From: Archaeoglobi archaeon JdFR-42
GTDB taxonomy: Archaea > Halobacteriota > Archaeoglobi > Archaeoglobales > JdFR-42
Length of the DNA: 32,000 bases
Direction: 5' to 3'
Assembly: GCA_002010305.1 (NCBI GenBank)
Contig: MTND01000027.1
Coordinates: 14,470-46,469, forward strand
The translations under genes were made by a program, and so were the position numbers. Position 1 is the stretch's first letter. Each line of letters opens with the position of its first letter. Positions 1-25,602 of the stretch are shown in pieces. The notes beneath the pieces are model-generated. The model did not search any database and was not told where the DNA came from. It was given only the letters and a program-made list of their open reading frames with translations.

Positions 1-432
1 GTTCATCATCATTTCGCACTCAGCCTTGAACCGCTCCAGTGAAATATTCACATCGGAGGAAGTAATGGAAAATTCAACGTGTTTTCTAAATTCCCCTTTT
101 CCATGATGTACTTCAAGGCCTACGGTTTGGATTGCTCCAACAGGAACACCAAAATCTTTTGAAGGCTCAATCTGACTACCATCAACTCCACAGATCTTTA
201 ATCCCTCTAAAATGGAAATAGCATGGTTTGTCTGGATATTAAAAGTTCTGAAGGAAGGAGGGCTGGCTGGTTTCGCTCCACGGCAGCTCTCATAGTCAAA
301 ATAATCACTCTCATAAATCTCTTTTAGGAACTTAACTGCAGTATTACGAGCTTTTTCAGCTTTTTCCAATTCCATTTCCAGTTCTTTTGAAAATTTTTCA
401 ATAGCTTCTAACATTTTCCCTATATCAAGCAT
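1..432 (-). CDS. nurA: NurA-like 5'-3' nuclease, N-terminal part (ORF runs off the left edge of the window)
   Basis: Absent from the ORF track because no stop lies in the window. My translation of the minus strand from ATG 432..430 gives MLDIGKMLEAIEKFSKELEMELEKAEKARNTAVKFLKEIYESDYFDYESCRGAKPASPPSFRTFNIQTNHAISILEGLKICGVDGSQIEPSKDFGVPVGAIQTVGLEVHHGKGEF..., open for all 144 codons. GVDGS resembles the catalytic-Asp motif of archaeal NurA. The start overlaps the rad50 stop (TAATG), and mre11-rad50-nurA is the classic archaeal gene order. Confidence 0.6.
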   Translation of the reverse strand, partial: MLDIGKMLEAIEKFSKELEMELEKAEKARNTAVKFLKEIYESDYFDYESCRGAKPASPPSFRTFNIQTNHAISILEGLKICGVDGSQIEPSKDFGVPVGAIQTVGLEVHHGKGEFRKHVEFSITSSDVNISLERFKAECEMMMN

Positions 433-3104: not shown

Positions 3105-4404
3105 AGCATTTCCTCCAGTCCCACACCTCCTCCTCTTGAAAATCATCTGGTTGTTGGTTTTCCATAGAGTGTTTCAGTTTTATCTCTGATGTCTCTATTT
3201 TCTGTGGGATTTTAGCATCTATGAGGTCCTCAAGAAACATGTCCACTTTTTCAAGAGTGAAGTCCGAAATGAAAACTTTTTTGAGATCTACTATTGCTTT
3301 CGCGAATCTTTCTTCCACTCCATCGAATATAGGGTGTCTATATAGTAATTTTTGAATGACATCCAGTTCAAAATCCTCTCGTCTGTCTCCCTCGAAAATA
3401 ACATCGTAATCACTAGTCTGTGTTTCAAATCTAAGCCGTATAACTATGGGGGAATAAATGGAGTTGATAATCTCTTTAATTCTCTCTTCATGTATTTCGT
3501 TCCTGGCTATAGAGCCTCGTATGGTGAGCTCCACAACAGGATTCCCTATGGTTTTGTTATTTTCAAGATATTCTTCAAGTTCTTGATAGAGGTTTGAAGA
3601 ATTATCTGCATTGAAATGTAGCCGAATAAATTTCCTTCTTGCGTTTTCAATAAGGGTTACTTTAACACTATCTGATACTTTAACAAAGAAAAAGCCCTTT
3701 TTCCATCCATACTCGTCGATACTCCATGTTTCGGGAGCACCTGGATTATAAATCCAATCATCTTCCATGTAATATTTGTGTATATGTCCGAGAGCAACAT
3801 AGTCTATTTTTTCTCTGAGAGGGAGGAAGGAATGATAATCAACCATTCCGGAAATGTTGGGCACATATCCCTCAAGACCAGCATGCATCATTAGTATGTT
3901 AAATCGATCAGAATCTTTAAATGCATCAGAAAAAGTTTGTAAACCAATCTCAGTTGCAGAGCCTAGGTATTTGATCCCATATATACGAGCCTCATTTATG
4001 TCATAGAACGCCCCTCCTTTCTCCTTTGTCCATGCCCTCAAACTGGCTTTTCCCTTACCAAAATCAGGAGATAGAAGATGTAGTAATCCTTCTCTGGAAA
4101 GATAGTTCATCCAAGACATCTGATCCGAAAAGTGAGCTCTATCATGATTACCTTCCACACAGAAAAGAGGAATATTATTGTCTTTAAGCAGCTTCAGACA
4201 TGTGGTTGCCTGAAGAAGAGTTTTTGGATTGATAGACCTTTTATTGAACATATCCCCTGAAAGGAGAACAAAGTCCACTTTTTTTGAGATGGCATACTGG
4301 ACGATTTCCAGAAAAGCCTGTCCAAAATCCAGAAATCGTTCAGTATTCCCATACTGTTCATATCCCAGATGTGTATCGGCTAAGTGAATAAAACTGAAAG
4401 ACAT
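3082..4404 (-). CDS. mre11: Mre11 DNA repair nuclease (calcineurin-like phosphoesterase)
   Basis: Phosphoesterase motifs in order: ADTHLG, GDMFN, GNHD, MHAGL, GHIH. The 3' end overlaps the proposed rad50 start by 23 nt, so the two form an operon. Confidence 0.93.
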   Translation of the reverse strand: MSFSFIHLADTHLGYEQYGNTERFLDFGQAFLEIVQYAISKKVDFVLLSGDMFNKRSINPKTLLQATTCLKLLKDNNIPLFCVEGNHDRAHFSDQMSWMNYLSREGLLHLLSPDFGKGKASLRAWTKEKGGAFYDINEARIYGIKYLGSATEIGLQTFSDAFKDSDRFNILMMHAGLEGYVPNISGMVDYHSFLPLREKIDYVALGHIHKYYMEDDWIYNPGAPETWSIDEYGWKKGFFFVKVSDSVKVTLIENARRKFIRLHFNADNSSNLYQELEEYLENNKTIGNPVVELTIRGSIARNEIHEERIKEIINSIYSPIVIRLRFETQTSDYDVIFEGDRREDFELDVIQKLLYRHPIFDGVEERFAKAIVDLKKVFISDFTLEKVDMFLEDLIDAKIPQKIETSEIKLKHSMENQQPDDFQEEEVWDWRKCYDKKSVP

Positions 4405-11389: not shown

Positions 11390-12424
11390 TTATATCTCTA
11401 TGATTTCAGGGTCATCCACTATCCGGGAAGTTCCAGTTCCCTTTTCTACCCATCCTATTTCAAAAGAGTCGTAACCTCTTTCACCAAGAGCCATCAGAAG
11501 ATCATCTTTTGTATCTTTTCCAACAGAAAGCAGTAAACCTCCAGCCGTTTCTGCAGCCTTTCCGATTTCAAGTCCGTATCCAAGTTCTTTGGATACCTCA
11601 AGTGTCCCTCTGATAACAGGAAGGGCATCAATAATTATGTTTACTCCACTTCGTTTGGCCATCTCAGAAGCATGTCCAAGGAGTCCGAACCCGGTTACAT
11701 CAGTGGACGCATGAACAGAATAATCATTCAATATGGTTGCAGCGAATTTATTGGTGGTAGTCAGAATCTCTATTGCCTTGTCTATGGCCCTTTCAAGAAT
11801 TTTCTCTGATACTATCTCTGTCAAATAATCCTGCATCTCATCATCAAGTCTGAGAAGTGCCATGGCTGGTTGTATGCCCAAGGGTTTTGTTAAAATCAAG
11901 ACATCTCCTGCTCGTGCTGTGGAATTGAGGATAATTCTATCTTTTTTTCCAAATCCAGTTACAGCACCTCCAATAATGGGCCAGGGATTGAAAATGGTGT
12001 GCCCTCCTACCACAGGAGCTTCAATTGATCGACAGAAATCAAAAAATCCTTCTATAAGTTTCTTTTTTACGATATCGGGCATATCAGTTGGAAAACCTAG
12101 CATAAGGAGAACTCCTGAAATGTCCAAAATCCCTTTAGCGTAAATGTCGTTAGTGGAGTTACATGCAGCAATTTGTCCCTGTATATAGGGATCATCAATG
12201 ATAGGTGTAAAAAAATCCACTGTATGAAGGATGGCCACATCCTCAACGAGAGTTATTCCACTATCATCTCCAATTCCTGCAATCACATTCTCAGGATAAG
12301 GGTAGCTTATAGAGAAATGTTTCAACAATTCTTCAAGATCGTATTTTGGTAACTTACAGCTACATCCATGAATACTTACTTTTTGAGTCAATCTGTATTT
12401 CACGTTTTTATAACGGCGCATCAT
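11390..12424 (-). CDS. selD: Selenophosphate synthetase (selenide, water dikinase), Cys-type
   Basis: N-terminal HGCSCKLP matches the SelD C/U-x-C-K active-site loop. The body is AIR-synthase-like (GDDSGI, DFFTP, ...HASTDVTGFGLLGH). GGTGG lies 5 nt upstream of the ATG. Confidence 0.85.
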   Translation of the reverse strand: MMRRYKNVKYRLTQKVSIHGCSCKLPKYDLEELLKHFSISYPYPENVIAGIGDDSGITLVEDVAILHTVDFFTPIIDDPYIQGQIAACNSTNDIYAKGILDISGVLLMLGFPTDMPDIVKKKLIEGFFDFCRSIEAPVVGGHTIFNPWPIIGGAVTGFGKKDRIILNSTARAGDVLILTKPLGIQPAMALLRLDDEMQDYLTEIVSEKILERAIDKAIEILTTTNKFAATILNDYSVHASTDVTGFGLLGHASEMAKRSGVNIIIDALPVIRGTLEVSKELGYGLEIGKAAETAGGLLLSVGKDTKDDLLMALGERGYDSFEIGWVEKGTGTSRIVDDPEIIEI

Positions 12425-12659: not shown

Positions 12660-13346
12660 TCATCTCAGATACACTCTGACCTCTGTTATAAACATGGCGA
12701 CAAAATAGAGGATCACAATAGCCCCGATAAGACAGGAGAGGATGTGAGTGAGAAAAAGTCCTAAATTAGCTGAAATTCCAGCGAGGCTTATAAATGTAAA
12801 GGTCACAAAAGTTCCGTTCAGAAGAGGAATGAGATTTAAAGGCAGTAGCATTTGACTCTTCATTTGTTTCCTGTATCTAAGGAGAGATAGTGATGCATAG
12901 AATATGATGATGGATACTGCCAGTGCAAGAATTCCAAATCCATAAAATGGAATTTCAGGCTCCACAGCCATCTCAATATGCTGGAGGAGAATCCAAGTAA
13001 GTGCGATGTATGAGACTACACTGAGAAATTTTCCACTTGGGGTTACTCTAAGGCCTATACCCGTTCTTTGTGTCAACCATCCTAGTAATAGTATTGCAGC
13101 AGGCATGTAAAGTACTGCAACACCTGCAATATGAGGAAGTGTTACGGAAAACTTTCCGATAATGAGTCCTATGAAAAGTACAAGGTAAATAATCCCGAGA
13201 AATATCAGGAGAATTCCAATTCCTAATGATAGGCTGCTCCAATACTGGTTTAGAAGTGAAAGTTTTTCTAGATCGTGGGAGTTAAGAATAAGAAGAGCCC
13301 ATATGGATACAAGCAAAAGAACCAGGGATACTACCAGGAAACTCAC
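12660..13346 (-). CDS. Polytopic membrane protein of unknown function (about 7 TM segments)
   Basis: Uninterrupted 228-codon ORF with regularly spaced hydrophobic segments and a GTG start. I recognise no family. Confidence 0.5.
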   Translation of the reverse strand: MSFLVVSLVLLLVSIWALLILNSHDLEKLSLLNQYWSSLSLGIGILLIFLGIIYLVLFIGLIIGKFSVTLPHIAGVAVLYMPAAILLLGWLTQRTGIGLRVTPSGKFLSVVSYIALTWILLQHIEMAVEPEIPFYGFGILALAVSIIIFYASLSLLRYRKQMKSQMLLPLNLIPLLNGTFVTFTFISLAGISANLGLFLTHILSCLIGAIVILYFVAMFITEVRVYLR

Positions 13347-13547: not shown

Positions 13548-13621
13548 GCCCCCGTGGTATAGTCTGGATAGCATGAGGGCCTCCGGAGCCCTAGACCTGG
13601 GTTCAAATCCCGGCGGGGGCA
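13548..13621 (+). tRNA. tRNA-Arg (anticodon CCG)
   Basis: Hand-folded cloverleaf. Acceptor GCCCCCG/CGGGGGC (7 bp) with discriminator A. D-loop AGTCTGGATA with A14 and G18G19. Anticodon stem AGGGC/GCCCT with loop CT-CCG-GA. T-arm CTGGG-TTCAAAT-CCCGG. CCA is not encoded. The D-stem (GTAT/GCAT) is weak, with two G-U pairs and one A-C mismatch. Confidence 0.85.
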
Positions 13622-14673: not shown

Positions 14674-14728
14674 TCCACGAGGGTTAACTTTATCAATCCA
14701 TCCCGAGTATCCATCAGAAAGTGGAGGC

Positions 14729-16849
14729 ATGTTCATGAATCCTTATCTGTTAATACTGGTGGGCGTTCCTGGTGCTGGGAAGTCTACCTTTGCAAAGGTC
14801 ATGGCAGACTTACTGAGTGAAAAGAACATTCCATCTGTGATCATCTCTCCGGACAGTTTCAGGGAGATGATTAAGCAAAAAGAATTTGATCCGTCATCTG
14901 AGGAATTTGTTTCTAATGCTGTCCGAACCAGTGTTGAACTTGCACTAAAACATGGTTTCTTTGTCATTTGTGACGATCTTAATTACTATGAATCCATGCG
15001 ACGCAAATTAAAAGATATTGCCGTAAGACTTGGGTTTGAGTATGGGATAGTATACATCTCTACATCTCCAGAAACAGCAAAAGAATGGAATAGGGCAAGG
15101 GGAAATCCTATCCCAGATGATCTGATTGATGACATCTATTTCAAACTGGACATTCCGGGTAAAAAATACCGATGGGATAAACCCATTTTTTCGGTAGATC
15201 TAGGAGAAACCAAGCCTGATGAAGCTGTCATAGATCTTGTCGAGATTATCAATAAAAAGATCAAAAAATCCGACTTACAGAAAAGGAAACCTAGAAAAGA
15301 TAGTTGTGAAAGCAGAAAAGTTAGGGAAATTGAAAGAGTTACGAGACATGCCATGGGAACTCTAATGCGAGAATATAGGCTAGGGGACGCTGCATCTCAG
15401 ATCTCAATGCTTAGAAAGGAGATAGTAAAACAAGCCTTGATGAGGAAATGGCCTCCTGAAAAAGCTGCTTCAGAATTTCTCGAGAATGCTAGGAATATTA
15501 TTAAAGGTTTTCAAATACAGCCTGAAGGTAAAATACACATACATCTGGGTTTATTCGGGCATATTGATCATGGAAAAACCTCTATTGCAAGGTGTCTGAC
15601 AGAAACGGCCTCTACTGCAAGCCTTGATCGGCATCCTGAATCCCAGAAAAGAGGGATGACAATTGATATGGGATTTTCAGCCTTTGAGGCTGGAAAGTAT
15701 ATTGTCACTCTGGTGGATCTCCCTGGTCATCACTCTTTAATGAGTCATGTGGTAGGGGGAGCAAGCATAATCGATGGAGCCCTACTGGTAGTAGATGTGC
15801 TGGATGGGATCAATGTTCAGACTGTTGAACATTTTGCTGTTATAAGGGGTCTAGGGCTGAAGCTAATTATCATATTGAATAAGGTAGATGCCGCCTCTGA
15901 CGATAGAATTAACGAAGTAGAGGAAAAAATCAAGAAAATGCTAGATGGATACTCTGCTAGAATTGTCAGAGTTTCTGCTTTTACAGGTCAGGGAATTGAT
16001 GAGCTTAAAGATATTATTTCAGATGAAATTCCCCCTCCTACGAGGATTATTATTGGATCCCTAAAAATCCCTTTGGATCATGCTTTTCACATCCCTGGTG
16101 CGGGAACGGTTGTTACAGGTACCATTATGCGTGGAGAGGTTAAAAGAGGGGATACGCTCTATTTGTTCCCAATCAAAAGAGAGGTAAAAGTGCGAGGAAT
16201 TCAAATATTCAAACAAAATGTGAATCGAGCCAAAGCAGGAGATCGAGTCGCTCTTGCCTTGAGTGGTGTCAAACCTGATGAGATTGACAGAGGATTCATT
16301 CTTACGTCATCATTCTTGAGTGAAGTGAATTTTGTCAGAGTGGCAGTGAAAAAAGAAAGGTTTTATAGTCATCCAATACGAGTCGGAGAAGTTATGCATG
16401 CGGGCATTGGCTTAAATTCAACTATGGTTGAAGTATACCCAGTTATAGATGAAATGGGTACTCTTGTACTTTCAGAAGCTGGAGATGAATTTGATGCACT
16501 CTTGAGATTAGAAAAAAAGCTTGTAGTTGAAGAAGGAGATATGGTGATGTTGTATCGTGGTGATCTCTCTCCACGAGAAATGAGAGTTGTAGGTGTAGGG
16601 AAAGTAACGGAAATATTTGGTAAGGCCCCTAAGATCTACAGGAAAAAGACAAGGATATGTGAGTTTGTAGATACGAGACACGGTGTAATGGCAAAAATTA
16701 GACTCGAGAAAGAAAAACATTTGGATAAGATACTTGTGGATGGTACGTTAATGGATGTTAAGTCTTTTACAGATAAAGGAGTTATTTTGGAAAAAGTACA
16801 TCCTGGTGAGAAACCTTTAACTTTTTTCAGGAGGGTGAAAATTGAATGA
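14729..16849 (+). CDS. Fusion protein: O-phosphoseryl-tRNA(Sec) kinase (PSTK) module (aa ~1-260) + selenocysteine-specific elongation factor SelB/aEFSec (aa ~265-706)
   Basis: One uninterrupted 706-codon ORF. The N-terminal part has the PSTK/KTI12-type P-loop LILVGVPGAGKSTF, then CDDLNYYESMRRKL, DIPGKKYRWDKPIF, and a basic helical C-terminal tRNA-binding-like region (RKVREIERVTRHAMGTLMREY). From about aa 270 it continues into IHLGLFGHIDHGKTSIARCLTE..ASLDRHPESQKRGMTIDMGF (G1/G2), DLPGH (G3) and NKVD (G4), followed by beta-barrel domains typical of archaeal SelB. No ATG/GTG/TTG lies near the junction (about 15506-15535). Confidence 0.85.
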   Translation: MFMNPYLLILVGVPGAGKSTFAKVMADLLSEKNIPSVIISPDSFREMIKQKEFDPSSEEFVSNAVRTSVELALKHGFFVICDDLNYYESMRRKLKDIAVRLGFEYGIVYISTSPETAKEWNRARGNPIPDDLIDDIYFKLDIPGKKYRWDKPIFSVDLGETKPDEAVIDLVEIINKKIKKSDLQKRKPRKDSCESRKVREIERVTRHAMGTLMREYRLGDAASQISMLRKEIVKQALMRKWPPEKAASEFLENARNIIKGFQIQPEGKIHIHLGLFGHIDHGKTSIARCLTETASTASLDRHPESQKRGMTIDMGFSAFEAGKYIVTLVDLPGHHSLMSHVVGGASIIDGALLVVDVLDGINVQTVEHFAVIRGLGLKLIIILNKVDAASDDRINEVEEKIKKMLDGYSARIVRVSAFTGQGIDELKDIISDEIPPPTRIIIGSLKIPLDHAFHIPGAGTVVTGTIMRGEVKRGDTLYLFPIKREVKVRGIQIFKQNVNRAKAGDRVALALSGVKPDEIDRGFILTSSFLSEVNFVRVAVKKERFYSHPIRVGEVMHAGIGLNSTMVEVYPVIDEMGTLVLSEAGDEFDALLRLEKKLVVEEGDMVMLYRGDLSPREMRVVGVGKVTEIFGKAPKIYRKKTRICEFVDTRHGVMAKIRLEKEKHLDKILVDGTLMDVKSFTDKGVILEKVHPGEKPLTFFRRVKIE

Positions 16850-18158
16850 AGAATGGCTCAGTATTCTTTCTGGTATGATTCCAAACAACATGCTTGAACG
16901 AGGTAGGGTGGTCAGAAAAAACCTCACCTCATCCATTAAGGTTCTTTTTGAGCAGAGATCAGTTCCGTATGAAGGGTGGAGTAATGAAGCCATCTGGGAA
17001 TTGATTCACTTTCTCTCGTCTATGGACACAGATAAGGATGCTCATGCTGCAAGAATAGGCGAGAGGGAAGCAAGAACAGCAAGTCCCTTAAATTCGTATT
17101 ATTCTGGAGGGTTTAATCATGGTGTTGGTAGATCTGGAGAGCTGATAGCCCCTCAACCGAAAGCTCCTGGGACCTCCATCATGTATCAGCTTGCCAATAG
17201 AATTGCTCTTTCCTTTTTGAAACACCTTGGTCTGCCCAATGTAAATGGAGCTTTTGTTGCGCCTCTATCTACTGGTATGGCCATAGCTCTGGCTTTATCG
17301 TACTTCAGGAAGATACATAGAGGTCATGAAGTAGTGTATCCAAGAGCGGATCATAAGTCCCCTATGAAAGCTGTGGAGTTAATTGGTGGAAAGCTAAAAG
17401 TTGTAGAAGGAGTTATAAATGGAGATGAAGTTACGATTCCTATTGAGGACATCCATGAGGCAGTTTCAGAGAACACTTTTGCTATTCTTTCCACCACCAC
17501 CTTTTTTCCTCCACGGGGACCTGATAACGTTAAGGAAATTGCCAAACTTGCTAGGGATCTGGAAATTCCCCATATCATTAATAATGCTTATGGTGTTCAG
17601 AGCCATGAGATCATGAAAAGAATTCGTTCTGCCATTGACGCTGGAAGAGTTGATGTGATAATTCAGAGTACTGATAAAAACTTTCTTACACCAATAGGTG
17701 GCTCGATTCTGGCGAGCTCGGATTCTTCATCTCTTGAAGGAATTTCAAAAATGTATCCGGGGAGGGCTAATGCAAATCCTGTGCTGCAGTTCCTAATCAG
17801 TTCTCTTAGCTTGGGCTTAAATGGATATGAAAGCCTTAGACAGGAGCAAATTTCAGCAAAGAAATTACTAGGGGATCTTTTGAAAGAATTTGCAGATGAT
17901 GTTGGTGAACATGTCCTTCACGTGTACAATCCTGTTGCATGGGCAGTTACTATGGACTCAAAAGATGTGAGGGCTGTAGGAGGTGCTCTGTATAATTTAA
18001 GAGTTACAGGACCAAGAGCTGTAAAAAAAGGGGATTTCGGATCATGTTGCAATGAATATCCCCACTCATACATTACCATGAATGCTGCAATTGGGGTAAA
18101 GAAGAGGGATATAACAATGGCTGTTGAAAGGCTGAGAAAGGCATATAAGTCTGTATGA
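16842..18158 (+). CDS. O-phosphoseryl-tRNA(Sec) selenium transferase (SepSecS)
   Basis: MDTDKDAHAARIGEREAR, GVGRSGELIAPQPKAPGTSIMYQL, the PLP-lysine context IIQSTDKNFLTPIGGS, and LRVTGPR. The TTG start at 16842 overlaps the PSTK-SelB stop (16847..16849) by 8 nt. The N-terminus (LSGMIPNNMLERG) aligns in length with methanococcal SepSecS as I remember it. Confidence 0.88.
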   Translation: MNEEWLSILSGMIPNNMLERGRVVRKNLTSSIKVLFEQRSVPYEGWSNEAIWELIHFLSSMDTDKDAHAARIGEREARTASPLNSYYSGGFNHGVGRSGELIAPQPKAPGTSIMYQLANRIALSFLKHLGLPNVNGAFVAPLSTGMAIALALSYFRKIHRGHEVVYPRADHKSPMKAVELIGGKLKVVEGVINGDEVTIPIEDIHEAVSENTFAILSTTTFFPPRGPDNVKEIAKLARDLEIPHIINNAYGVQSHEIMKRIRSAIDAGRVDVIIQSTDKNFLTPIGGSILASSDSSSLEGISKMYPGRANANPVLQFLISSLSLGLNGYESLRQEQISAKKLLGDLLKEFADDVGEHVLHVYNPVAWAVTMDSKDVRAVGGALYNLRVTGPRAVKKGDFGSCCNEYPHSYITMNAAIGVKKRDITMAVERLRKAYKSV

Positions 18159-18334
18159 GATCGGTCTTTAATGTCGCATCCGTAGAATTACCTGTGAGAA
18201 GTTTTTATCTTAGTCTAGCTGATTGATATTATTCCAAAGCAAGATATCCTCAGTGAATCTTAGCATATCAGTCGAATGGAATATGTGCGGTAAAATTCAA
18301 AAACCTTAATTATCCCAGAATAACATCACCCCAT

Positions 18335-19471
18335 GTGAGTCTCAGAAAGATCATTCCTTATGCGTATTCCCACGCTCTCATTCACTCCTTTGAGTTAATC
18401 CTTCCCCCACTTATACCGATTATCGTGGTATATTACAATATTTCGTATTTTAAAGTCGGAATGCTGGCAACATTCGGCTATTTTCTCTTTGGCATTGGTC
18501 AAATCCCATTTGGCATGTTATATGATAAACTCCGAGGAAACTTCCTTGTTATTCTCAGCTTGGCCGGAGCTGCATTTTTCTCTATACTTGTGGGGCTTTC
18601 GACCTCTTTCCTTACTTTTGTTGTGTTCTTTGCTGCTATGAACCTGTTTCTCAGCATTTTTCACCCTCCTGCTTTTGCTTTAATATCTCATAGATTTAAA
18701 GGGTCAAGAGGAAGAGCCATGGGTATTTTGGGGCTGGGTGGAACCTTTGGCCTTGCGTTAACTCCGACAGTGGTGGCATGGTTGGGAGAAACATACCGTT
18801 GGCAAATACCCTACATCCTCTTTGGAGTTCTGGGACTTCTTGCAGCTGTAATCCATTGGACAGAGAGGAAAGAGTATGATCAACATGTAGAAAGAGAAAA
18901 ATTGGAAAAAAAGCGACGAATAACATCTTACTTCATCCTTTTAATTTCTGTGTATGTGATAAAAGGTTTTATTTATCGAGGGGCTCTAACTTTCCTCCCC
19001 ACATACATATCTTCTTTCAGTTCTGTGTACTTTGGAGGATTAATAGTTACTTTCATGCTGGTGTCTGGAGGATTCGGACAGATACTGGGAGGAGAAATGG
19101 TAGACCGATTTAACAGGGTGGTTTTTCTGGTCGTTCTTCTCGCCCTTGACACCATTTTTCTATTGCTGCTTTTCTCATCTTCTACAACTTTGATATATGC
19201 ACTACCAGTTGCACTGGGTTTTACATACTTTGCAGGTCAGACAGTAATCAACGTACTTATTTCTGATTTTACTCCTGAATCATCCAGAGGCACCGGGTAT
19301 GGTATTGCCTTCTCTATAGCGTTTACTTTAGGCTCTTTTTCATCAACTGTCGCAGGTTACATCGCTGATATTTTAGGATTCGAATACATATTCCTGTTTC
19401 TTGGAGTAATATCTGTATTTTCCGTTATCATAACAATGTATCTATGGAGGTTGTGGCATGAGGCTGCCTGA
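18335..19471 (+). CDS. MFS-type transporter
   Basis: About 10-12 TM segments, a central charged loop (ERKEYDQHVEREKLEKKRR), an MFS-like GxxxDKLRG motif and a GTG start. Confidence 0.65.
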   Translation: MSLRKIIPYAYSHALIHSFELILPPLIPIIVVYYNISYFKVGMLATFGYFLFGIGQIPFGMLYDKLRGNFLVILSLAGAAFFSILVGLSTSFLTFVVFFAAMNLFLSIFHPPAFALISHRFKGSRGRAMGILGLGGTFGLALTPTVVAWLGETYRWQIPYILFGVLGLLAAVIHWTERKEYDQHVEREKLEKKRRITSYFILLISVYVIKGFIYRGALTFLPTYISSFSSVYFGGLIVTFMLVSGGFGQILGGEMVDRFNRVVFLVVLLALDTIFLLLLFSSSTTLIYALPVALGFTYFAGQTVINVLISDFTPESSRGTGYGIAFSIAFTLGSFSSTVAGYIADILGFEYIFLFLGVISVFSVIITMYLWRLWHEAA

Positions 19472-20069
19472 AGATGCATGCATTAAAAAACTCCTTAAGC
19501 TACTACATGAATCTCCATCATCCCACGATTTAGACCATGTTATGAGAGTATTTCGTCTGGCAGTTGATATCGGAGAAAAAGAAGGGGCAGATCTGCGGGT
19601 GATACAGGTCGCAGCTCTCCTTCATGATATAGCTAGGCTCAATAATATTAGAAAGAGATTAGGAGGAATAGAGTACAACCATGCCATAGCTGGAGCTAAA
19701 AAAGCCAGACAGATTCTTTCAGATATAGGTCTCAATGAAAGTTTCATAGCGAGAGTTGAGCACTGTATCGAATCCCACTCCTATTCGTCTCCCATTGTAC
19801 CGTTGACACTGGAGGCAAAAGTGCTCAGTGATGCTGATAAGCTGGACGCTATGGGTGCGGTGGGCATTGGAAGAGCCTTTATGTATGCAGGAGAAAACGG
19901 GAAGAATTTCCCCGCAGTTATTCAACATTTTGAAGAAAAACTCCTCAGGTTATATGATTTGTTGAATACCCCTTATGCCAGAAAAATAGGGAAGAAGCGA
20001 CATAGAGTCCTTAAAGAATTTTTAGAGCAATTGAAAAAGGAATTAGATTGGGTAGAGGAGCCTGAATGA
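19458..20069 (+). CDS. HD-domain metal-dependent phosphohydrolase
   Basis: HDLDHVMRV ... LLHDIAR ... HS ... DADKLDAMGAVGIGRAF. It overlaps the preceding MFS gene by 14 nt. Confidence 0.75.
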   Translation: MRLPEDACIKKLLKLLHESPSSHDLDHVMRVFRLAVDIGEKEGADLRVIQVAALLHDIARLNNIRKRLGGIEYNHAIAGAKKARQILSDIGLNESFIARVEHCIESHSYSSPIVPLTLEAKVLSDADKLDAMGAVGIGRAFMYAGENGKNFPAVIQHFEEKLLRLYDLLNTPYARKIGKKRHRVLKEFLEQLKKELDWVEEPE

Positions 20070-20155
20070 GATTACATCCTGAGTGCTCCTAAAAATGAGA
20101 TTAAATCTTTTCCAAATTCTGAATTTTCATCTATGCTAGTTTTCAAAATTTTCAC

Positions 20156-21358
20156 ATGGGCCAAATATTTTTTATATTGCCTGTGTCATCTAATTCTCGA
20201 ATGTCTCGTGGTAATCTTCTTATCTTGGGAGTCTTGTTCAGTGTTACATCTTTTGATACTCTCCTTCTTGGATTTACAATCCCTAGATTAATCTCGGAAT
20301 ATGGTATTTCTCATGCTCAAGCTGGGTTACTTGGAACTATATTGATGGCAGGTATAGGGGCCGGAGCACTTATTTTAGGAAGTTTGTCTGATTTTACTGG
20401 AAGGAAAAATGTAATTTTATTGGCCTTATTTACTTTTTCAGCGTCTACGGGAATTCTGGGTGTAGTAAAGGGATATGTCCCAATGTCAATTCTGGTATTT
20501 GCATCCGGATTTGGATTGGGGGGAAGTATAACCATGACAATTGCATATCTCCCTGAAATTGTGAATAGATCACTCATTGCCAGATATATGTGCTATCTTG
20601 AATCTTTCTGGGGGGTTGGAGCTCTATTAATCGTGACGGCCTCATCACTTCTTGTAAGAAGCTCTTTGCAAGATATATTTTTCATCGGAGTTTTACCTGT
20701 ATTGCTGATACCTTTTTTATGGAAACTCCCAGATGTCCCTCCATCTGGAAAAGAGAATCTAACTGGCAGTTTAAAAACACTTCTGGTCGATTACAGAAAG
20801 GTTACATTTGTTCTATGGGTGATATGGTTTTGTGCCATTTATACATATTTTGGAGTATTTTTATGGCTCCCTGAAATCTTTATATCTCTCCTCAGGTATG
20901 GTGTTAGTGGAAATTTTATTTTGATACCCATATATGCTGTGCAAATCCTGTCCCCTCTCCTTCTTTCCAGGATAGTTGAGGGAAAAAATACAGGAAAGCT
21001 TATGGGAATATATTCTTTACTTGCTGCTGCCTCTGCCATGCTGTTTATAGCGACATCTTTACCATCGCTCGTTATTATAGGAATATTTCTCGCTTCCTTT
21101 TTCAGCATTGGTAGCTGGGCCCTTCTAATCCTACTTACTCCAGAAAGCTATCCACAATCTATCCGTGGTCTTGGTGTGGGTTCAGCCGCAAGTATTGGTA
21201 GAGCGGGAGGGATCATGGCTCCTTACATTACTGGCCATCTGATTGGTATAACAGGTTCTTACAGACCATCGTTTGTTGTGTTCATCGCCATGTTTGCTCT
21301 GATGGCCCTTTTTGCCTTCATACTGCCTACTACAGAACAAGAGGGGATGTTTTGGTAA
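20156..21358 (+). CDS. MFS-type transporter
   Basis: 12 TM-like segments with the MFS loop motif LSDFTGRKNV. The real start may be the internal Met at about 20201. Confidence 0.7.
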   Translation: MGQIFFILPVSSNSRMSRGNLLILGVLFSVTSFDTLLLGFTIPRLISEYGISHAQAGLLGTILMAGIGAGALILGSLSDFTGRKNVILLALFTFSASTGILGVVKGYVPMSILVFASGFGLGGSITMTIAYLPEIVNRSLIARYMCYLESFWGVGALLIVTASSLLVRSSLQDIFFIGVLPVLLIPFLWKLPDVPPSGKENLTGSLKTLLVDYRKVTFVLWVIWFCAIYTYFGVFLWLPEIFISLLRYGVSGNFILIPIYAVQILSPLLLSRIVEGKNTGKLMGIYSLLAAASAMLFIATSLPSLVIIGIFLASFFSIGSWALLILLTPESYPQSIRGLGVGSAASIGRAGGIMAPYITGHLIGITGSYRPSFVVFIAMFALMALFAFILPTTEQEGMFW

Positions 21359-22595
21359 ATTCCCTCATCAATGAGGTAGCATAGGATCCTTTTGGAAGGA
21401 AAAACTCAAAAGTAGCAGATGGCATATCACACACCCACGTAAAACTTGTATGGGAGTAGTTGATTGTTGCAGGACGCCATGACCCTTTTGAGGAAAATTC
21501 TGGTATTTCGTGGCGAAACTCTGCTAGATCCACCTCTTCCTCCTCTAAAATTTCCATCAGCCGTTCAGCGATCCATCCGTCAGAAAGAGATGTTTCATAT
21601 CCTGGCAAGGGTAGAGATAGTGTTATCTTTTCGGCCTCAATCAGTTTCAGGGCTGTTTTCTTGTAGTTTGAAGTGATTGTTACGACTTTTCTCTCATTGG
21701 GCAACCCATCTTCAGTTAAACATACTACATCCCCGGCATCTATTGTGTATAGGTTCCTGAATTCTCTGATCCTAGCTGAGAGAAGTCTATTAAAGAGAAA
21801 TGACTGGTATGCATGGATGAACATTATTCTTAGATTTTTTGGTAGTTTCAGTAAAGCTTTTCTATAGTCTTTATGTTGTATGTACTCCTGTAGAAGAATC
21901 TTTTCGTATCTCAGGTAATTGGGCAGATCCTTTATCAGTGATGGATCGCGGGTATTCCATAGTTCCTCTCTCAATTTACGTGTCTCTTCAGGTTCATAGG
22001 GAAAAGGCTTTCCTGTATAATGCCAGAATGCATTCTCATAGTCTTTCTTCAATATGAGTTTCCCCACTACGTGTGTAATGGCTCGCTGAGCACCAAACCG
22101 TTGATGTCCAAAGAAATTTGGAATACCCTTCTCTTTCAGCTCCATGGCAGTTTCTTTTATCGGACTACAGGATTCTATTTCACTGACGGTTATTCGAAAT
22201 CGGTTTCCTTTCAAATTTCCCAGTTTCATGGCTTGATCTGATCTTCCAATCACCTCGATTTTCACATCTGGTATTCTAATGGCCTCGATTCTCTCTTCTT
22301 CAACATTCCAGATACTAAAAAATTGTGTGGATAGAGATCTCTTGTCCTTATTTCCAGCAAATCCTATTCGTTTCTGTCCGATTCCAAGCTTATTAGATAA
22401 GACTCGTACAAAATTAAATGTATCCCAGTTTTTTTTGGTAGCTTTTATAATGAGATACTTCCCATCAGTATGAAGTTTGAGCAGAGGTATCTCTTCAACC
22501 TGAAAATCCTCGAAAGTGTTTCTCAGCTTCCCTTTTATACCTTTAGTTGATGTTATATATTCTTCAATTCCGATAGTTATATCAATCTCTGTCAT
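21330..22595 (-). CDS. truD: tRNA pseudouridine synthase TruD/Pus7 family
   Basis: N-terminal FEDFQVEEI and the catalytic-Asp motif GFAGNKDKRSLSTQ. The start overlaps the pth2 stop (ATGA). Confidence 0.85.
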   Translation of the reverse strand: MTEIDITIGIEEYITSTKGIKGKLRNTFEDFQVEEIPLLKLHTDGKYLIIKATKKNWDTFNFVRVLSNKLGIGQKRIGFAGNKDKRSLSTQFFSIWNVEEERIEAIRIPDVKIEVIGRSDQAMKLGNLKGNRFRITVSEIESCSPIKETAMELKEKGIPNFFGHQRFGAQRAITHVVGKLILKKDYENAFWHYTGKPFPYEPEETRKLREELWNTRDPSLIKDLPNYLRYEKILLQEYIQHKDYRKALLKLPKNLRIMFIHAYQSFLFNRLLSARIREFRNLYTIDAGDVVCLTEDGLPNERKVVTITSNYKKTALKLIEAEKITLSLPLPGYETSLSDGWIAERLMEILEEEEVDLAEFRHEIPEFSSKGSWRPATINYSHTSFTWVCDMPSATFEFFLPKGSYATSLMREFTKTSPLVL

Positions 22596-22942
22596 TTCAA
22601 CAAGGGCAAGTCTCTTGTAATCTTATCAATTAGCTTGCTGGGAGCAGGACCGATTACGAGGGCAGTAATAGTTCCAGGAGGTATTTCTGTAAGACCAGCA
22701 TCTTTTACAATGCCTGTTGGTAGTCCAAGTTTTTTTGCATCAATCTCTAGTTTCAAGACATCCTCGAGAGTAGGAACTCGTAGGACCACCTTTTTCTGAG
22801 CTTGGTCTTTCCATCTCTTCAAGTTCTCTTTACCGGCTTTTTCATAACCGAGTATAGCTGCATGGGCAACTTGGGCAGCGAGTTTTCCTTTAGATAGTTT
22901 AAGATCGTCTCTTACTATGATCACCTGTTTGTATTCCTCCAT
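22592..22942 (-). CDS. pth2: Peptidyl-tRNA hydrolase, archaeal/eukaryotic type (Pth2)
   Basis: KQVIIVRDDLKLSKGKLAAQVAHAA ... KDAGLTEIPPGTITALVIGP, at the typical length of about 116 aa. Confidence 0.9.
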   Translation of the reverse strand: MEEYKQVIIVRDDLKLSKGKLAAQVAHAAILGYEKAGKENLKRWKDQAQKKVVLRVPTLEDVLKLEIDAKKLGLPTGIVKDAGLTEIPPGTITALVIGPAPSKLIDKITRDLPLLK

Positions 22943-22981
22943 ACAGATCTCCCTGATACTATTTGGAGATACACGAGAGTA

Positions 22982-23263
22982 TTATTCTTCCAGAGCGAGA
23001 TCTTCAAGAGAAACGGGTCTGGATTTTCTCTCTTTCCATTCTTTGCCTATTGCAATCCCTTCCTTCTCACTGTATTCTGATATTATGATGTTTTCATCTT
23101 CCACTCTGGAAATCGCTTCCAATGGTACTCCAACAAAATTAGTGTCGTTTTTTATGATCAAGTAACCCTCATATATATCCAGACTTTCTCCCACTTTTTC
23201 CCCGTCATGTAATACATACTTGCATATGAGATCCATAGCAGGGACATCCTTCATAACACTCAC
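22982..23263 (-). CDS. Small hypothetical protein (about 90 aa)
   Basis: ORF co-directional with pth2-truD and 39 nt upstream of them, with gene-like composition. Either the GTG at 23263 or the ATG at 23254 could be the start. No family recognised. Confidence 0.4.
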   Translation of the reverse strand: MSVMKDVPAMDLICKYVLHDGEKVGESLDIYEGYLIIKNDTNFVGVPLEAISRVEDENIIISEYSEKEGIAIGKEWKERKSRPVSLEDLALEE

Positions 23264-23446
23264 AGAAATGGGTATCCTTCAACGGTAAATAAAAGTATCG
23301 AATGGTCATTGGATTGAACTTTTAATCAGAAAAGATCATTCGTTGAAAAAACTTTGAATGTTTTGGGGATATTGTAAGCCATAAACTTACAAATTGTCAA
23401 CTACAGTAACAATATTTTTAAGTATTTCATCTAACTTGTATCCAAT

Positions 23447-23863
23447 ATGCCAGAATATTATTTTCCTGAGCAGGTTCTACTGGTAATTAACAAAAAGGCA
23501 ATTAAAGGCAACTATGTCGAATCCTTTGGAGGATTTTGTCATTGTGGCAAGATCATGAAAACCGTAGCAGGTTTTTCAAACGATGAATCTTATGTGGTGG
23601 TAGAATGCCCCTCCTGTGGTAGTATGGAATTGCTAGTTTCTGCTAAATCTCTTGATTTCGTTCGAAAGATGGATTTGGTGGTTGTAAATTCCAGAGATCG
23701 GGTCCTTGAGTTTCTAAGAGATGTTCTCTCTCCGTCAGAATTGGAGACTGTGCTTGAAAGACTTAAAGGTAGTAGATACAATTACTCATCTTTTAATAGA
23801 GCGAAAAAGAAGATTAAAGATTTTAAGCTTGATTTAGACTATCTTCTTGCCTTTTTCCAATGA
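23447..23863 (+). CDS. Hypothetical zinc-ribbon protein (138 aa)
   Basis: CHCG ... CPSCG four-Cys/His arrangement, followed by a helical C-terminal half. No family recognised. Confidence 0.45.
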   Translation: MPEYYFPEQVLLVINKKAIKGNYVESFGGFCHCGKIMKTVAGFSNDESYVVVECPSCGSMELLVSAKSLDFVRKMDLVVVNSRDRVLEFLRDVLSPSELETVLERLKGSRYNYSSFNRAKKKIKDFKLDLDYLLAFFQ

Positions 23864-23880
23864 TGGATTTCTATTCCTGG

Positions 23881-23912
23881 TTTTTTAACTCTCACTTTTT
23901 AAGAAAAAGTGA
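23881..23912 (+). terminator. T6 tract plus perfect 9-bp hairpin downstream of the zinc-ribbon ORF
   Basis: TTTTTT at 23881..23886, then TCACTTTTT (23892..23900), loop AAG, and AAAAAGTGA (23904..23912). Confidence 0.35.
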
Positions 23913-24100
23913 AAATTATATATGAAATATAAAATATATATAATTAAATTCATGTCCTATTAATAATATATTTAAATTAACTAATAAAAATTAAAAAGTA
24001 TAATTTATTGTATTTAATTATTAAGAAAGATTAGTTATATATAAATATTTACTAGATTATTTTTAATATAGTATTTATATTGGAATATTAAAAACGATAT

Positions 24101-24331
24101 TTACACTAAAAAATTAGAGGCCTTTTCACCATTCTTATAAAATATGGAACAGATTATCCTAATCTCTCTGTATTTTGCATCTCTCAGCACATTCGATGTA
24201 TTTACCCCCCCTTGTTTAGACCATGAACCCTGAGTTCCTATATATGCTGGAATAATCTTCTGACGGAAAATAGCTTTTTTAGGTTTTCCTAAATATTGTT
24301 ATTCCACTATATTTGGAATACTAACATTCAT
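24101..24331 (-). pseudogene. Stop-interrupted ORF remnant of unknown family inside the AT-rich island
   Basis: The minus strand reads ATG(24331) MNVSIPNIVE, then an in-frame TAA (24301..24299), then QYLGKPKKAIFRQKIIPAYIGTQGSWSKQGGVNTSNVLRDAKYREIRIICSIFYKNGEKASNFLV, then TAA (24103..24101). The 65-codon open stretch has gene-like composition but no ATG/GTG/TTG start. Confidence 0.35.
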
Positions 24332-24385
24332 AAGTTTAATTTAAAAATTTAATATACATTATTTAATTATATGTTATGAATAATC

Positions 24386-24421
24386 TATATGATTTAATAT
24401 ATGATTTAGTATATGTTATTA
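24386..24421. repeat. 12-nt tandem repeat, three units
   Basis: TATATGATTTAA / TATATGATTTAG / TATATGTTATTA in direct tandem, plus a related TATATGTTATGA at 24368..24379. Confidence 0.6.
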
Positions 24422-24493
24422 AAGTTATGAATTTTTATATTTAAAACTAATTACTTTATTAATTTATTTCAATTATATTGAATTAATAAATAA

Positions 24494-24549
24494 GAAGTAG
24501 AACTGGTGAAGTAGAGCATATGAGATTAAAAGTGAGACTTTGAAGTGAG
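24494..24549 (+). repeat. Four direct copies of a GAAGTRGA-like octamer upstream of the ADP-ribosylglycohydrolase gene
   Basis: GAAGTAGA at 24494 and 24508, AAGTGAGA at 24530, GAAGTGAG at 24542. These are G-rich islands in otherwise A/T DNA, 80-140 nt upstream of ATG 24631. Confidence 0.5.
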
Positions 24550-24594
24550 TTGTTGCACCTCATGTATATTCAGTTCAAGATTACAAAGTAATTA

Positions 24595-24611
24595 AAAAAT
24601 ATTTAAATAAA
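24595..24611 (+). promoter_or_regulatory. TATA-like box upstream of the ADP-ribosylglycohydrolase gene
   Basis: AAAAAATATTTAAATAA, centred about 28 nt upstream of ATG 24631. Confidence 0.4.
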
Positions 24612-24630
24612 GGGATGGCAGGAAAAGAGT

Positions 24631-25602
24631 ATGGGTGGAAATTTGAAGGACAGGCTGAAAAATCGGTTTGTAGGCAGCATTTTAGGTGTTGCTGTTGGAG
24701 ATGCTCTGGGAATGCAGGTTGAAGAGCTATCAAGAGAGGAGATACTGTCCATGCATGGAGTGGTAAGGGATTACGGTAAAGCTCCAGAAGGCCACCCTAA
24801 TGACAGGCTTGAACCGGGTATGTATACTGATGACACCGAGCAGACCATCACGCTCTTAGTATCCATTATTGAGAAAGGAAGATTTGATGTGGGTCATTTT
24901 GCCATGAAGATTTCTGAATGGGGTAAACAGATTATGGAGCATCCTGAACTTGATAGGTTTTCAGGTGGTACCAGTAAAAAGGCTATTAAGAAGCTACTGG
25001 AAGGAATAGATTGGATGGAATCAGGAGAAGAAGGCACCACCTGCGGATCTGCCATGCGTGTTGCACCGATTGGTCTGTTTTATTATTACGATCTCGATTT
25101 TGTCGAAAAATTTGCAAGGATGTCAAGTACTCCAACCCACTCCAGTCATGGTGCGAGGGCTGGAGCTATGGCTGTTGCATTAGGAGTAGCATGCTGCATC
25201 AATGACTATCCTATTGAAAAAATGGTGGTAGAAGTTGTCAAACGGACTGCAAAAGAAGATGAGGAACTAGCAGACAAAATACAGCTTGCCTATGAAATAA
25301 GAGAGGTAGACCTGGATGAAGCTGTAAGAGAGATCGGAAACTCAAGTTCAGTCTATGAAACTGTTCCTTTTTCCTTTTACAGCTATTTTGGTCATGCTGA
25401 TCGATTTGAGGATGCGGTGATAACTGCTGTTAATGCGGGTGGAGATACCGATTCAATTGGAGCTATAACAGGAGGGATGGCAGGTGCTAGGCACGGCGTT
25501 GAGAGCATTCCTGATAGATGGCTAAAGAATCTAGAAAATAAAGAGTATCTTATTGAACTTGCAGAAAAGCTTTACATTCTAGCTGTAAAGGATATGGCGT
25601 GA
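24631..25602 (+). CDS. ADP-ribosylglycohydrolase family protein (DraG/ARH-like)
   Basis: GSILGVAVGDALG, MYTDDTEQT and GGDTDSIGAITGGMAGARHG, the metal-binding signature segments of the family. Confidence 0.85.
   Translation: MGGNLKDRLKNRFVGSILGVAVGDALGMQVEELSREEILSMHGVVRDYGKAPEGHPNDRLEPGMYTDDTEQTITLLVSIIEKGRFDVGHFAMKISEWGKQIMEHPELDRFSGGTSKKAIKKLLEGIDWMESGEEGTTCGSAMRVAPIGLFYYYDLDFVEKFARMSSTPTHSSHGARAGAMAVALGVACCINDYPIEKMVVEVVKRTAKEDEELADKIQLAYEIREVDLDEAVREIGNSSSVYETVPFSFYSYFGHADRFEDAVITAVNAGGDTDSIGAITGGMAGARHGVESIPDRWLKNLENKEYLIELAEKLYILAVKDMA

Follow-up and report, generated by a model that had tools for sequence, protein, structure and literature searches.

The window, that is, the whole 32-kb stretch of DNA analyzed here, contains a group of linked Sec-pathway genes. 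The central one is a PSTK-aSelB fusion, which occupies positions 14729-16849 of the plus strand (706 codons counted from the first ATG, both in the ORF list and by direct reading of the sequence) and ends with the TGA codon at 16847-16849; no internal stop codon is present in the ORF list or in the DNA read directly. Upstream of it, on the minus strand and divergently transcribed, is the gene for the selenophosphate synthetase SelD (11390-12424), which is of the Cys type (motif HGCSCK) and scores 404.5 bits with the NF010705 model, against a cut-off of 291. Downstream, on the plus strand, is the SepSecS gene (16842-18158), identified by TIGR03531 (479.7 bits, cut-off 224.85) and by the Pfam SepSecS family (E-value 2.9e-123). 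The order SelD (minus strand), fusion (plus strand), SepSecS (plus strand) is also seen in Bathyarchaeia loci.

The fusion gene was initially annotated as a stop-free frame of 706 codons starting at 14729. Though the single ORF holds, its true start is probably ATG 14735, giving a product of 704 aa, because the Shine-Dalgarno-like sequence GGAGG read directly at 14723-14727 of the plus strand, whose function is putative, is separated by 7 nt from this codon and by only 1 nt from ATG 14729. The NCBI (P0001), JGI, and Logan data each contain an identical protein call of 704 aa. At the other end of the gene, the initial annotation had SepSecS starting at TTG 16842 and overlapping the fusion stop by 8 nt, in full agreement with the ORF list and the sequence. 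Within the end of the fusion ORF there is another Shine-Dalgarno-like sequence, GGAGGGTGA (16830-16838, plus strand), with its GGAGG core 7 nt upstream of this TTG. The sequence CAGGAGGGT and the stop-overlapping TTG are also found in a relative with 58% identity (L001/L082), and, since this GGAGGG Shine-Dalgarno sequence and the position of the start are conserved at such a distance, translational coupling of SepSecS to the fusion is plausible.

The product had been described as one polypeptide with PSTK followed by an archaeal SelB, and profile, PDB-sequence, and fold comparisons agree on this architecture. The motifs quoted in that description, GVPGAGKST, DDLNYYESMRR, PGKKYRWDKP, GHIDHGKT, ESQKRGMTID, DLPGH, and NKVD, are all found as given. 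The profile search yields, as had been expected, two non-overlapping blocks in one protein, Pfam KTI12 at residues 7-226 and then GTP_EFTU from 270-435 onward.

The N-terminal kinase domain (approximately residues 7-180; positions 14747-15268, plus strand) is delineated by Pfam KTI12 (PF08433, the PSTK family; E-value 2.7e-38, 132.5 bits, cut-off 22), by AAA_33, and by the alignment with the Methanocaldococcus jannaschii PSTK. The latter alignment (3ADB/3A4L, E-value 3e-33) runs from query residue 6 to residues 249-250; on the structure side it ends at residue 251 of the 259-residue 3ADB chain and, in 3A4L, at residue 245 of 260. It thus reaches into the helical basic C-terminal domain (approximately residues 193-258; positions 15305-15502, plus strand), for which the AF2 model predicts three helices, 193-216, 219-239, and 243-258, and a tRNA-binding-like domain of this kind had been noted from the start. 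By these alignments, residues 7-258 constitute a complete PSTK with its kinase domain and its C-terminal tRNA-binding domain, and residues 193-258 are the sequence homologue of the domain with which the M. jannaschii enzyme binds the D-arm of tRNA(Sec).

Within the kinase domain, the Walker A P-loop GxxxxGK[ST] (G12-S19, GVPGAGKS), the Walker-B residue Asp42 aligned with M. jannaschii D41, the DDLNYYxSxR motif (82-91), the WNxxR lid (120-124), and the PGKKYRWDKP motif (143-152) can be recognized. In all 38 fusions compared, G12, G17, K18, D42, D82, D83, N85, Y86, Y87, and R124 are invariant, as are T205, R206, and R229 of the C-terminal domain. The M. jannaschii PSTK MJ1538 (3A4L, 3ADB), which, in contrast to the window PSTK covalently joined to SelB, is a standalone protein, has the same P-loop, Walker-B Asp, DDxNYY and PGKKYxWD motifs, and second lid Arg. 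As judged from these motifs, the N-terminal half should be an ATP-dependent Ser-tRNA(Sec) kinase. An assignment to KTI12 proper instead of PSTK was rejected, since in the PDB-sequence comparison no Kti12 structure reaches an E-value of 0.01 against this half, whereas PSTK matches at the value given above, and since the gene lies in a context of Sec genes.

The archaeal SelB moiety (residues 269-706; positions 15533-16846, plus strand) is supported by NCBIfam, Pfam, sequence similarity to 4AC9, and Foldseek. It scores 278.8 bits with the NCBIfam selB model TIGR00475, above the curated cut-off of 242.25, and contains the Pfam domains GTP_EFTU (270-435, E-value 3.9e-36), EF-Tu domain 2 (459-526), and aSelB_III (583-628). 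The M. maripaludis SelB (4AC9) matches with an E-value of 1e-76, and the top Foldseek matches are 4AC9/4ACB, over approximately 470 columns and with target-normalized TM-scores of 0.73-0.76. The early view of this region (approximately 270-706) as a complete archaeal SelB is borne out by the selB score and by the four-domain fold match, the domains being G (approximately 269-435), II (446-527), III (532-630), and IV (636-706). Domain IV is divergent; the sequence alignment with 4AC9 ends at query residue 362 of 439, and the fold match spans this domain.

The G domain has the motifs GHIDHGKT, DLPGH, NKVD, and SAF, with G1, G3, and G4 present. Residues G277, H278, D280-T284, D330-H334, K385, D387, H451, and R506 are invariant in the 38 fusions, and the last two align with H192 and R247 of the M. 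maripaludis SelB, reportedly residues of its Sec pocket (Leibundgut et al. 2005). The C-terminal moiety is a four-domain archaeal SelB that should bind GTP and Sec-tRNA(Sec) and deliver the latter to UGA. The four domains, the G motifs, and the equivalents of His451 and Arg506 are shared with the M. maripaludis SelB (4AC9/4ACB) and with the eukaryotic eEFSec (5IZL, 7ZJW). These standalone factors differ in having no N-terminal PSTK extension, of which the fusion carries approximately 268 residues (30 kDa).

The two halves meet at residues 259-268 (positions 15503-15532, plus strand; alignment columns approximately 280-296), and the junction sequence quoted in the initial annotation, ...NARNIIKGFQIQPEGKIHIHLGLFGHIDHGKT, is found as given. 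The AF2 model of the fusion (mean pLDDT 85.5) has here a coil of approximately 10 residues between the helix 243-258 and the strand 269-277. The join is indeed short, but its description as having no linker is slightly overstated. All 38 homologues have 10-12 residues in the stretch that corresponds to residues 259-269 here, with variable sequence. The pTM of the model is only 0.64, and so the position of the PSTK half with respect to the SelB half is not established by it.

Fusions of this architecture form approximately 38 protein clusters, and in 30 GTDB species genomes of Bathyarchaeia and Archaeoglobaceae, which come from many studies, the fusion is kept as a single uninterrupted ORF; related genomes had been proposed as the place to look for it. 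The closest relative of the window protein is encoded in an Archaeoglobaceae MAG. Over the full length, the window protein is 59% identical to this second Archaeoglobaceae fusion and 37-42% identical to the Bathyarchaeia fusions, the corresponding values for the best tblastn segments being 58% and 37-46%. The two Archaeoglobi-lineage genomes with the fusion, whose proteins are 58% identical, also have approximately 10 kb of downstream synteny in common. The Bathyarchaeia proteins are about 730 aa long, compared with 706 aa for the window protein, whose C-terminal end is shorter. Among the fusions, the pairwise identities of the PSTK half and those of the SelB half are correlated with r = 0.97 (703 pairs), and therefore the two halves have co-evolved with a single shared history.

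Though the initial annotation is correct as an observation, the fusion is not new. PSTK-aSelB fusions are known from Bathyarchaeota and from "one Archaeoglobus species" (Mukai et al. 2022, Front Genet, PMC8762117, section 3.4.1, Fig. 9), and the description is repeated in a review (PMC9499178). The window fusion is very probably the Archaeoglobus case mentioned in PMC8762117. It has the same arrangement as the published fusions, with PSTK N-terminal and aSelB C-terminal in one uninterrupted ORF, the same clustering with SepSecS and SelD, and a matching lineage, as the housekeeping gene truD of the window is Archaeoglobi-like, with its best named matches all from Archaeoglobi. By the published model, genomes of this class should also possess SepRS-SepCysS and have no SepCysE (PMC8762117); SepRS, SepCysS, and SepCysE are absent from the 32-kb window and from the locus L081.

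In many Bathyarchaeia loci a tRNA-Sec gene is found next to SepSecS, whereas in the window there is none at this place. The spacer 3' of SepSecS is AT-rich and has nothing tRNA-like, and tRNA-Sec was not found in the window by ARAGORN, by Rfam at gathering thresholds, or by two Rfam E-value scans, in which the sole tRNA was tRNA-Arg(CCG) at 13548-13621. A recent horizontal-transfer island was considered as well and rejected, because the GC content of the Sec cluster (0.38-0.41) is not distinct from that of the rest of the window (0.36-0.43).

The Asgard Sifarchaeia and Borrarchaeia have the same gene order, PSTK and then SelB, and closely related proteins, 33-35% identical to the fusion in the PSTK part and 40-42% in the SelB part. 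In contrast to the fusion, their two genes are adjacent and separate. PSTK ends in TGA, additional stops or a change of frame and 30-45 nt of spacer lie in between, and SelB starts at a TTG of its own. For instance, locus L024 has a second in-frame TAG, and in L040 and L048 the frame changes between PSTK and SelB. Read-through of UGA or Sec insertion yielding a fusion product in these relatives was rejected, since the spacer and the SelB TTG are present in four of four loci. The Sifarchaeia also possess SepRS-SepCysS (PMC8762117). Since they keep PSTK and SelB separate, the Sec pathway can exist alongside the Cys pathway without the fusion.

We suggest, with a probability of roughly 0.6, that the fusion is a bifunctional Sec-pathway gene expressed as one, in which the covalent link most likely tethers tRNA(Sec). 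SepSecS, whose gene follows and overlaps that of the fusion, would make Sec-tRNA(Sec) from the phosphorylated intermediate with selenophosphate supplied by the nearby SelD, and the C-terminal SelB moiety would bind GTP and Sec-tRNA(Sec) and bring the latter to UGA codons. Throughout, tRNA(Sec) would stay tethered, plausibly via the D-arm-binding C-terminal domain of PSTK, and its acceptor end would move from the kinase site to SepSecS and then to the SelB pocket. The link would also fix the stoichiometry at 1:1 and keep the local concentration high, and the mis-acylated Sep-tRNA(Sec) would be kept from SepCysS and from the general elongation factor. Protection of Sep-tRNA(Sec) from SepCysS by the fusion has been put forward in PMC8762117, as a hypothesis only.

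The proposed logic, a mis-acylated tRNA that is kept bound until converted, is that of the transsulfursome (SepRS-SepCysE-SepCysS) and the transamidosome (PMC8762117). Unlike the fusion, these are non-covalent complexes of a synthetase and a modifying enzyme with an adaptor, whereas in the fusion the elongation factor is covalently attached to the first modifying enzyme, and the middle enzyme, SepSecS, is skipped. If tethering is true, the fusion would represent a natural and compact case of substrate channelling, leading from tRNA-dependent amino acid synthesis straight into translation. It bears on how the archaeal Sec pathway is separated from the SepRS/SepCysS Cys pathway, and the remaining value of the re-identified fusion is that of a well-documented candidate for a first biochemical test.

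The main competitor, to which we give a little over a quarter of the weight, is a neutral "Rosetta-stone" fusion, whose halves would work independently and would be merely co-expressed, with neither hand-off nor sequestration of tRNA. Such a fusion could have originated from adjacent operon genes merged by the loss of a stop codon and a short spacer. The Asgard loci, where the same two genes are split only by the TGA, the spacer, and the TTG described above, fit this origin, as the genes lie so close that one small deletion would create the fusion. The short linker of variable sequence and the modest pTM of the model, with no confident inter-domain interface, are also what independent halves would lead one to expect. 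On the other hand, at least 30 species, with identities as low as 37%, have retained the intact fusion, and the length of the junction hardly varies. This suggests that selection acts on the joined state of PSTK and SelB; the argument is weak, since un-fusing would need several changes.

Tethering of tRNA(Sec) by the fusion can be extended to a physical complex, though we regard this extension as doubtful, at about one chance in five. The fusion would then be the core of a dimeric, SepSecS-associated "Sec-synthesome", in which tRNA(Sec) is held by its D-arm from phosphorylation to GTP-dependent delivery. The M. jannaschii PSTK is a dimer, and by analogy dimerization would proceed via the PSTK moiety. 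In such a complex the elongation factor would reach the ribosome still bearing a biosynthetic enzyme. As a further possibility, the basic C-terminal domain of PSTK might contribute to the recognition of the archaeal 3'-UTR SECIS.

It is quite improbable that the N-terminal half is a degenerate non-kinase module of the KTI12/PSTK type, retained for tRNA binding, with a separate PSTK encoded elsewhere in the genome. A module of this kind would only add tRNA(Sec) specificity to SelB, or serve other RNA binding. The NCBIfam model selen_PSTK (TIGR03574), the best kinase model for this half, gives 173.9 bits and so stays under its equivalog cut-off of 290.5. The lid deviates too. An RxxxR motif (R116/R120 in M. 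jannaschii) is reportedly important for PSTK (Sherrer et al. 2008); R120 has the invariant R124 as its equivalent, and R116 is replaced by Trp120 in the fusion. This Trp was rejected as the mark of a dead or special kinase, and is no sign of decay, because it also prevails among standalone PSTK homologues (82 of 99) and is found in most non-Methanococcales homologues, the strict RxxxR being a minority, Methanococcales-like form. The P-loop, Asp42, DDxNYY, and Arg124, invariant in 38 of 38 fusions, also argue against degeneration, as does the search for a second PSTK near the cluster, which gave no match in the 30 fused loci.

Hardly more credit is due, and if anything slightly less, to the production of free SelB alongside the fusion, with translation starting internally at TTG 15437 or ATG 15440. 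According to the initial annotation, there is no codon from which a separate SelB could start, which is true of residues 239-300 but not of the region just upstream, where these two in-frame codons (residues 237/238) precede the G domain by 32 codons. No well-spaced Shine-Dalgarno sequence was found for them on reading the sequence, the AGGAG present being 15 nt upstream and none lying at a working distance, and in the alignment of the 38 proteins residue 238 does not belong to the columns that are invariant or nearly so.

Finally, an origin of the fused frame in a sequencing or assembly artefact, such as a missed stop or a frameshift, might be suspected from the metagenome-assembled source and from the truncated SelB halves in the related loci L021 and L028, but it is effectively refuted, with a negligible residual probability, by 30 other genomes, recovered in many studies, in which the ORF is likewise uninterrupted, and by the identical junction on the NCBI contig, on a 233,389-bp JGI contig, and on a separate 3,255-bp JGI contig (P0122).

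The gene at 14729-16849 (+), genetically linked to SepSecS and SelD, encodes a single polypeptide that combines an intact PSTK with an intact aSelB and has been conserved in one piece. Both the mechanical ORF list and direct reading of the DNA give a stop-free frame of 706 aa, and the latter also recovers the junction peptide ...NARNIIKGFQIQPEGKIHIHLGLFGHIDHGKT and every motif quoted in the initial annotation, which had joined PSTK and SelB in one ORF. A GGAGG sequence (14723-14727) lies 1 nt from ATG 14729 but 7 nt from ATG 14735, and thus the 704-aa product of the second ATG is the likelier form. An assembly artefact is ruled out, since the junction occurs on separate contigs and the fused frame is conserved across homologues and genomes: the identical protein is encoded on two contigs, one from NCBI (233,158 bp; GCA_003935005.1, RSFX01000002.1) and one from JGI (233,389 bp), and another JGI contig, separate from these and 3,255 bp long, has a copy that is cut short at the C-terminus but extends across the junction.

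As anticipated, profile searches find two separate Pfam blocks in this protein (7-226 and 270-628), namely KTI12, the family containing PSTK (residues 7-226, E 2.7e-38), and GTP_EFTU (270-435, E 3.9e-36) followed by EF-Tu domain 2 (459-526) and aSelB_III (583-628). With 278.8 bits, the NCBIfam model selB TIGR00475 clears its curated cut-off of 242.25; the top kinase model, selen_PSTK TIGR03574, reaches 173.9 bits and stays below its cut-off of 290.5. Crystal structures of the M. jannaschii PSTK (3ADB, 3A4L) align to residues 6-249 (E 3e-33), spanning the kinase domain and the C-terminal tRNA-binding domain, while the runner-up structures for this half are generic P-loop kinases with E > 1e-5, and no Kti12 structure is among its structure matches. 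The observation holds, and PSTK and SelB were correctly identified. In the alignment to M. jannaschii PSTK, K17/S18, D41, and R120 correspond to K18/S19, D42, and R124 of the fusion, and the R116 position is occupied by Trp120. Among 99 standalone PSTK homologues, supplied by a search across 1.84 billion representative proteins, the equivalent residue is Trp in 82 and Arg in 11. Trp120 is thus no special feature of the fused protein, and WNxxR is shown to be the usual form of the PSTK lid motif.

The second half matches the M. maripaludis SelB (4AC9, E 1e-76). An AlphaFold2 model of the fusion, built from an alignment of 38 full-length fusion proteins (mean pLDDT 85.5, pTM 0.64), is matched by Foldseek to 4AC9/4ACB over ~470 columns with target-normalised TM-scores of 0.73-0.76, and hence all four SelB domains are present. 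His451 and Arg506, both invariant in the alignment, correspond to His192 and Arg247 of the M. maripaludis Sec pocket, a role reportedly described by Leibundgut et al. in 2005. The model places a coil (259-268) between the final PSTK helix (243-258) and the opening strand of the G domain (269-277). Its confidence is low at 185-191, the linker joining the two PSTK domains, and at 296-315 within the SelB G domain, the switch-I region of EF-Tu-type GTPases. The junction had been described as having no linker, but this coil and the length of the junction stretch (residues 259-269; 10-12 residues in all 38 proteins) reveal a short one of ~10 residues. The claim that a separate SelB has no start codon stands only in part: in-frame TTG 15437 and ATG 15440 exist 32 codons upstream of the G domain, but neither has a well-spaced Shine-Dalgarno sequence, and residue 238 falls in an alignment column that is neither invariant nor nearly so.

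The same architecture was found in other genomes, with ~38 full-length protein clusters (720-747 aa) containing both KTI12 and EF-Tu domains in the database search, and 30 loci where the PSTK frame continues unbroken into SelB (L001-L023 and L026-L032, including the SelB-truncated L021 and L028) in a scan that took one genome for each GTDB species. Catalytic and binding residues of both halves are invariant in the 38-sequence alignment, and pairwise identities of the two halves are correlated with r = 0.97 (703 pairs). Given this correlation and the near-fixed junction, the halves have shared a single evolutionary course, as one gene, from their common ancestor onward. In two Bathyarchaeota loci, L021 (8001-9618) and L028 (8001-9201), the fusion ORF ends within the SelB half (539 and 400 aa, respectively), with additional SelB fragments downstream in L028; these may be pseudogenes or reflect frameshift errors in long reads. 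Bathyarchaeia-type fusions in MAGs labelled Limnocylindrales bacterium, Nanoarchaeia, and Sulfotelmatobacter (L009, L010, L012) have 42% identity to the window, equal to true Bathyarchaeia loci, and the labels are probably binning errors in public MAGs.

The SepSecS gene (16842-18158 (+); TIGR03531, 479.7 bits) begins, as initially annotated and as seen in the DNA, at TTG 16842 overlapping the TGA stop of the fusion, and is preceded by GGAGGGTGA at 16830-16838. The 58%-identical Archaeoglobaceae relative has the same CAGGAGGGT, then a stop-overlapping TTG in a TTGA arrangement. Because both features occur in the two genomes, translational coupling of the fusion and SepSecS seems plausible. SelD (11390-12424 (-); NF010705, 404.5 bits) is of the Cys type, with HGCSCK near the N-terminus and no in-frame TGA, and therefore is not a selenoprotein in the window. 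The order SelD(-), fusion(+), SepSecS(+) recurs in Bathyarchaeia (L002-L006, L022, L027, L031); in L029, SelD and the fusion share a strand, with SelD upstream. The cluster does not stand out in GC content.

The named best matches of the window TruD are all Archaeoglobi (Archaeoglobus veneficus, Geoglobus, Ferroglobus, and Archaeoglobaceae MAGs; ~50% identity), and the nearest fusion (58%, tblastn) comes from a MAG labelled Archaeoglobaceae (L001). Window positions 16842-25602 are syntenic with 12160-20238 of L082, a longer ENA contig of this relative, over ~10 kb downstream of the fusion, the common order being fusion, SepSecS, MFS, HD, MFS, TruD, PTH2, DUF5749, an AF0631-like gene, and ADP-ribosylglycohydrolase. 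Thus at least two related Archaeoglobi-lineage genomes possess the fusion. The upstream genes differ (EamA transporter, tRNA-Arg, and SelD in the window; AMP-binding, TauE, and TGT in L082). The first MFS transporter has a public gene call of 250 aa (L081 13985-14737) versus a 378-aa ORF in the window (18335-19471 (+)); with the GTG 18335 start, the MFS_1 match begins at residue 21, so the public start seems too far downstream.

The possible novelty of the fusion is not upheld, as the architecture is widespread and was described for Bathyarchaeota and one Archaeoglobus species by Mukai et al. 2022 (PMC8762117, section 3.4.1 and Fig. 9) and restated in a 2022 review (PMC9499178); the published Archaeoglobus case very probably includes the lineage of the window. 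The modest additions made here are a second Archaeoglobi-lineage fusion genome, statistics on co-evolution and on the length of the junction, conservation of the Shine-Dalgarno sequence and of the TTG that overlaps the fusion stop at SepSecS, the probable ATG start 14735, and WNxxR as the usual PSTK state. No experimental work on any fused PSTK-SelB protein was found in the literature. We suggest that the PSTK moiety would phosphorylate Ser-tRNA(Sec), SepSecS would then convert the phosphorylated product, and the SelB moiety would capture Sec-tRNA(Sec), with the PSTK C-terminal domain plausibly gripping the tRNA D-arm while the acceptor end travels among the active sites. Such tethering, if true, would improve efficiency and keep Sep-tRNA(Sec) out of reach of both SepCysS and the general elongation factor. 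Mukai et al. 2022 (PMC8762117) report that their one fusion-bearing Archaeoglobus species possesses SepRS-SepCysS without SepCysE, and they proposed shielding of Sep-tRNA(Sec) from SepCysS by the fusion.

The main rival explanation holds that neighbouring operon genes may have merged neutrally, with no effect beyond fixing stoichiometry. How readily this could happen is shown by four Asgard loci (Borrarchaeum, Sifarchaeum, and a Promethearchaeota MAG), where PSTK neighbours SelB in the order seen in the window, each as a gene of its own; a stop-split version in Sifarchaeia was noted by Mukai et al. 2022 (PMC8762117). Such split genes occur where SepRS-SepCysS is present, so the fusion is not obligatory there, and the modest pTM yields no confident interface between the PSTK and SelB halves. 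In the Asgard loci, the PSTK TGA stop is followed by a 30-45 nt spacer with a further stop or frame change and by a SelB TTG start, and on these grounds Sec-dependent read-through of this TGA was rejected. Methanococcales, Thorarchaeota, Helarchaeota, and other lineages gave SelB-only matches in the species genome scan.

Among the remaining genes, tRNA-Sec (anticodon TCA) was identified by ARAGORN in many Bathyarchaeia loci, mostly just past the SepSecS 3' end on the opposite strand (L007 1822-1905, L022 11536-11627, L029 10296-10387; further L010, L011, L013, L014, L016, L017, L020, L026, and L032), and was not found in the window or in L002-L005, L027, and L031, which have the common SelD-fusion-SepSecS order. 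Between SelD and tRNA-Arg(CCG) (13548-13621), a 228-aa ORF (12660-13346 (-)) without a Pfam match encodes a predicted multi-pass membrane protein. At 432-4404 (-), a Rad50-like ATPase (904 aa; AAA_23, SMC_N) adjoins a Mre11-like metallophosphoesterase (440 aa), a pair of ordinary archaeal DNA-repair genes.
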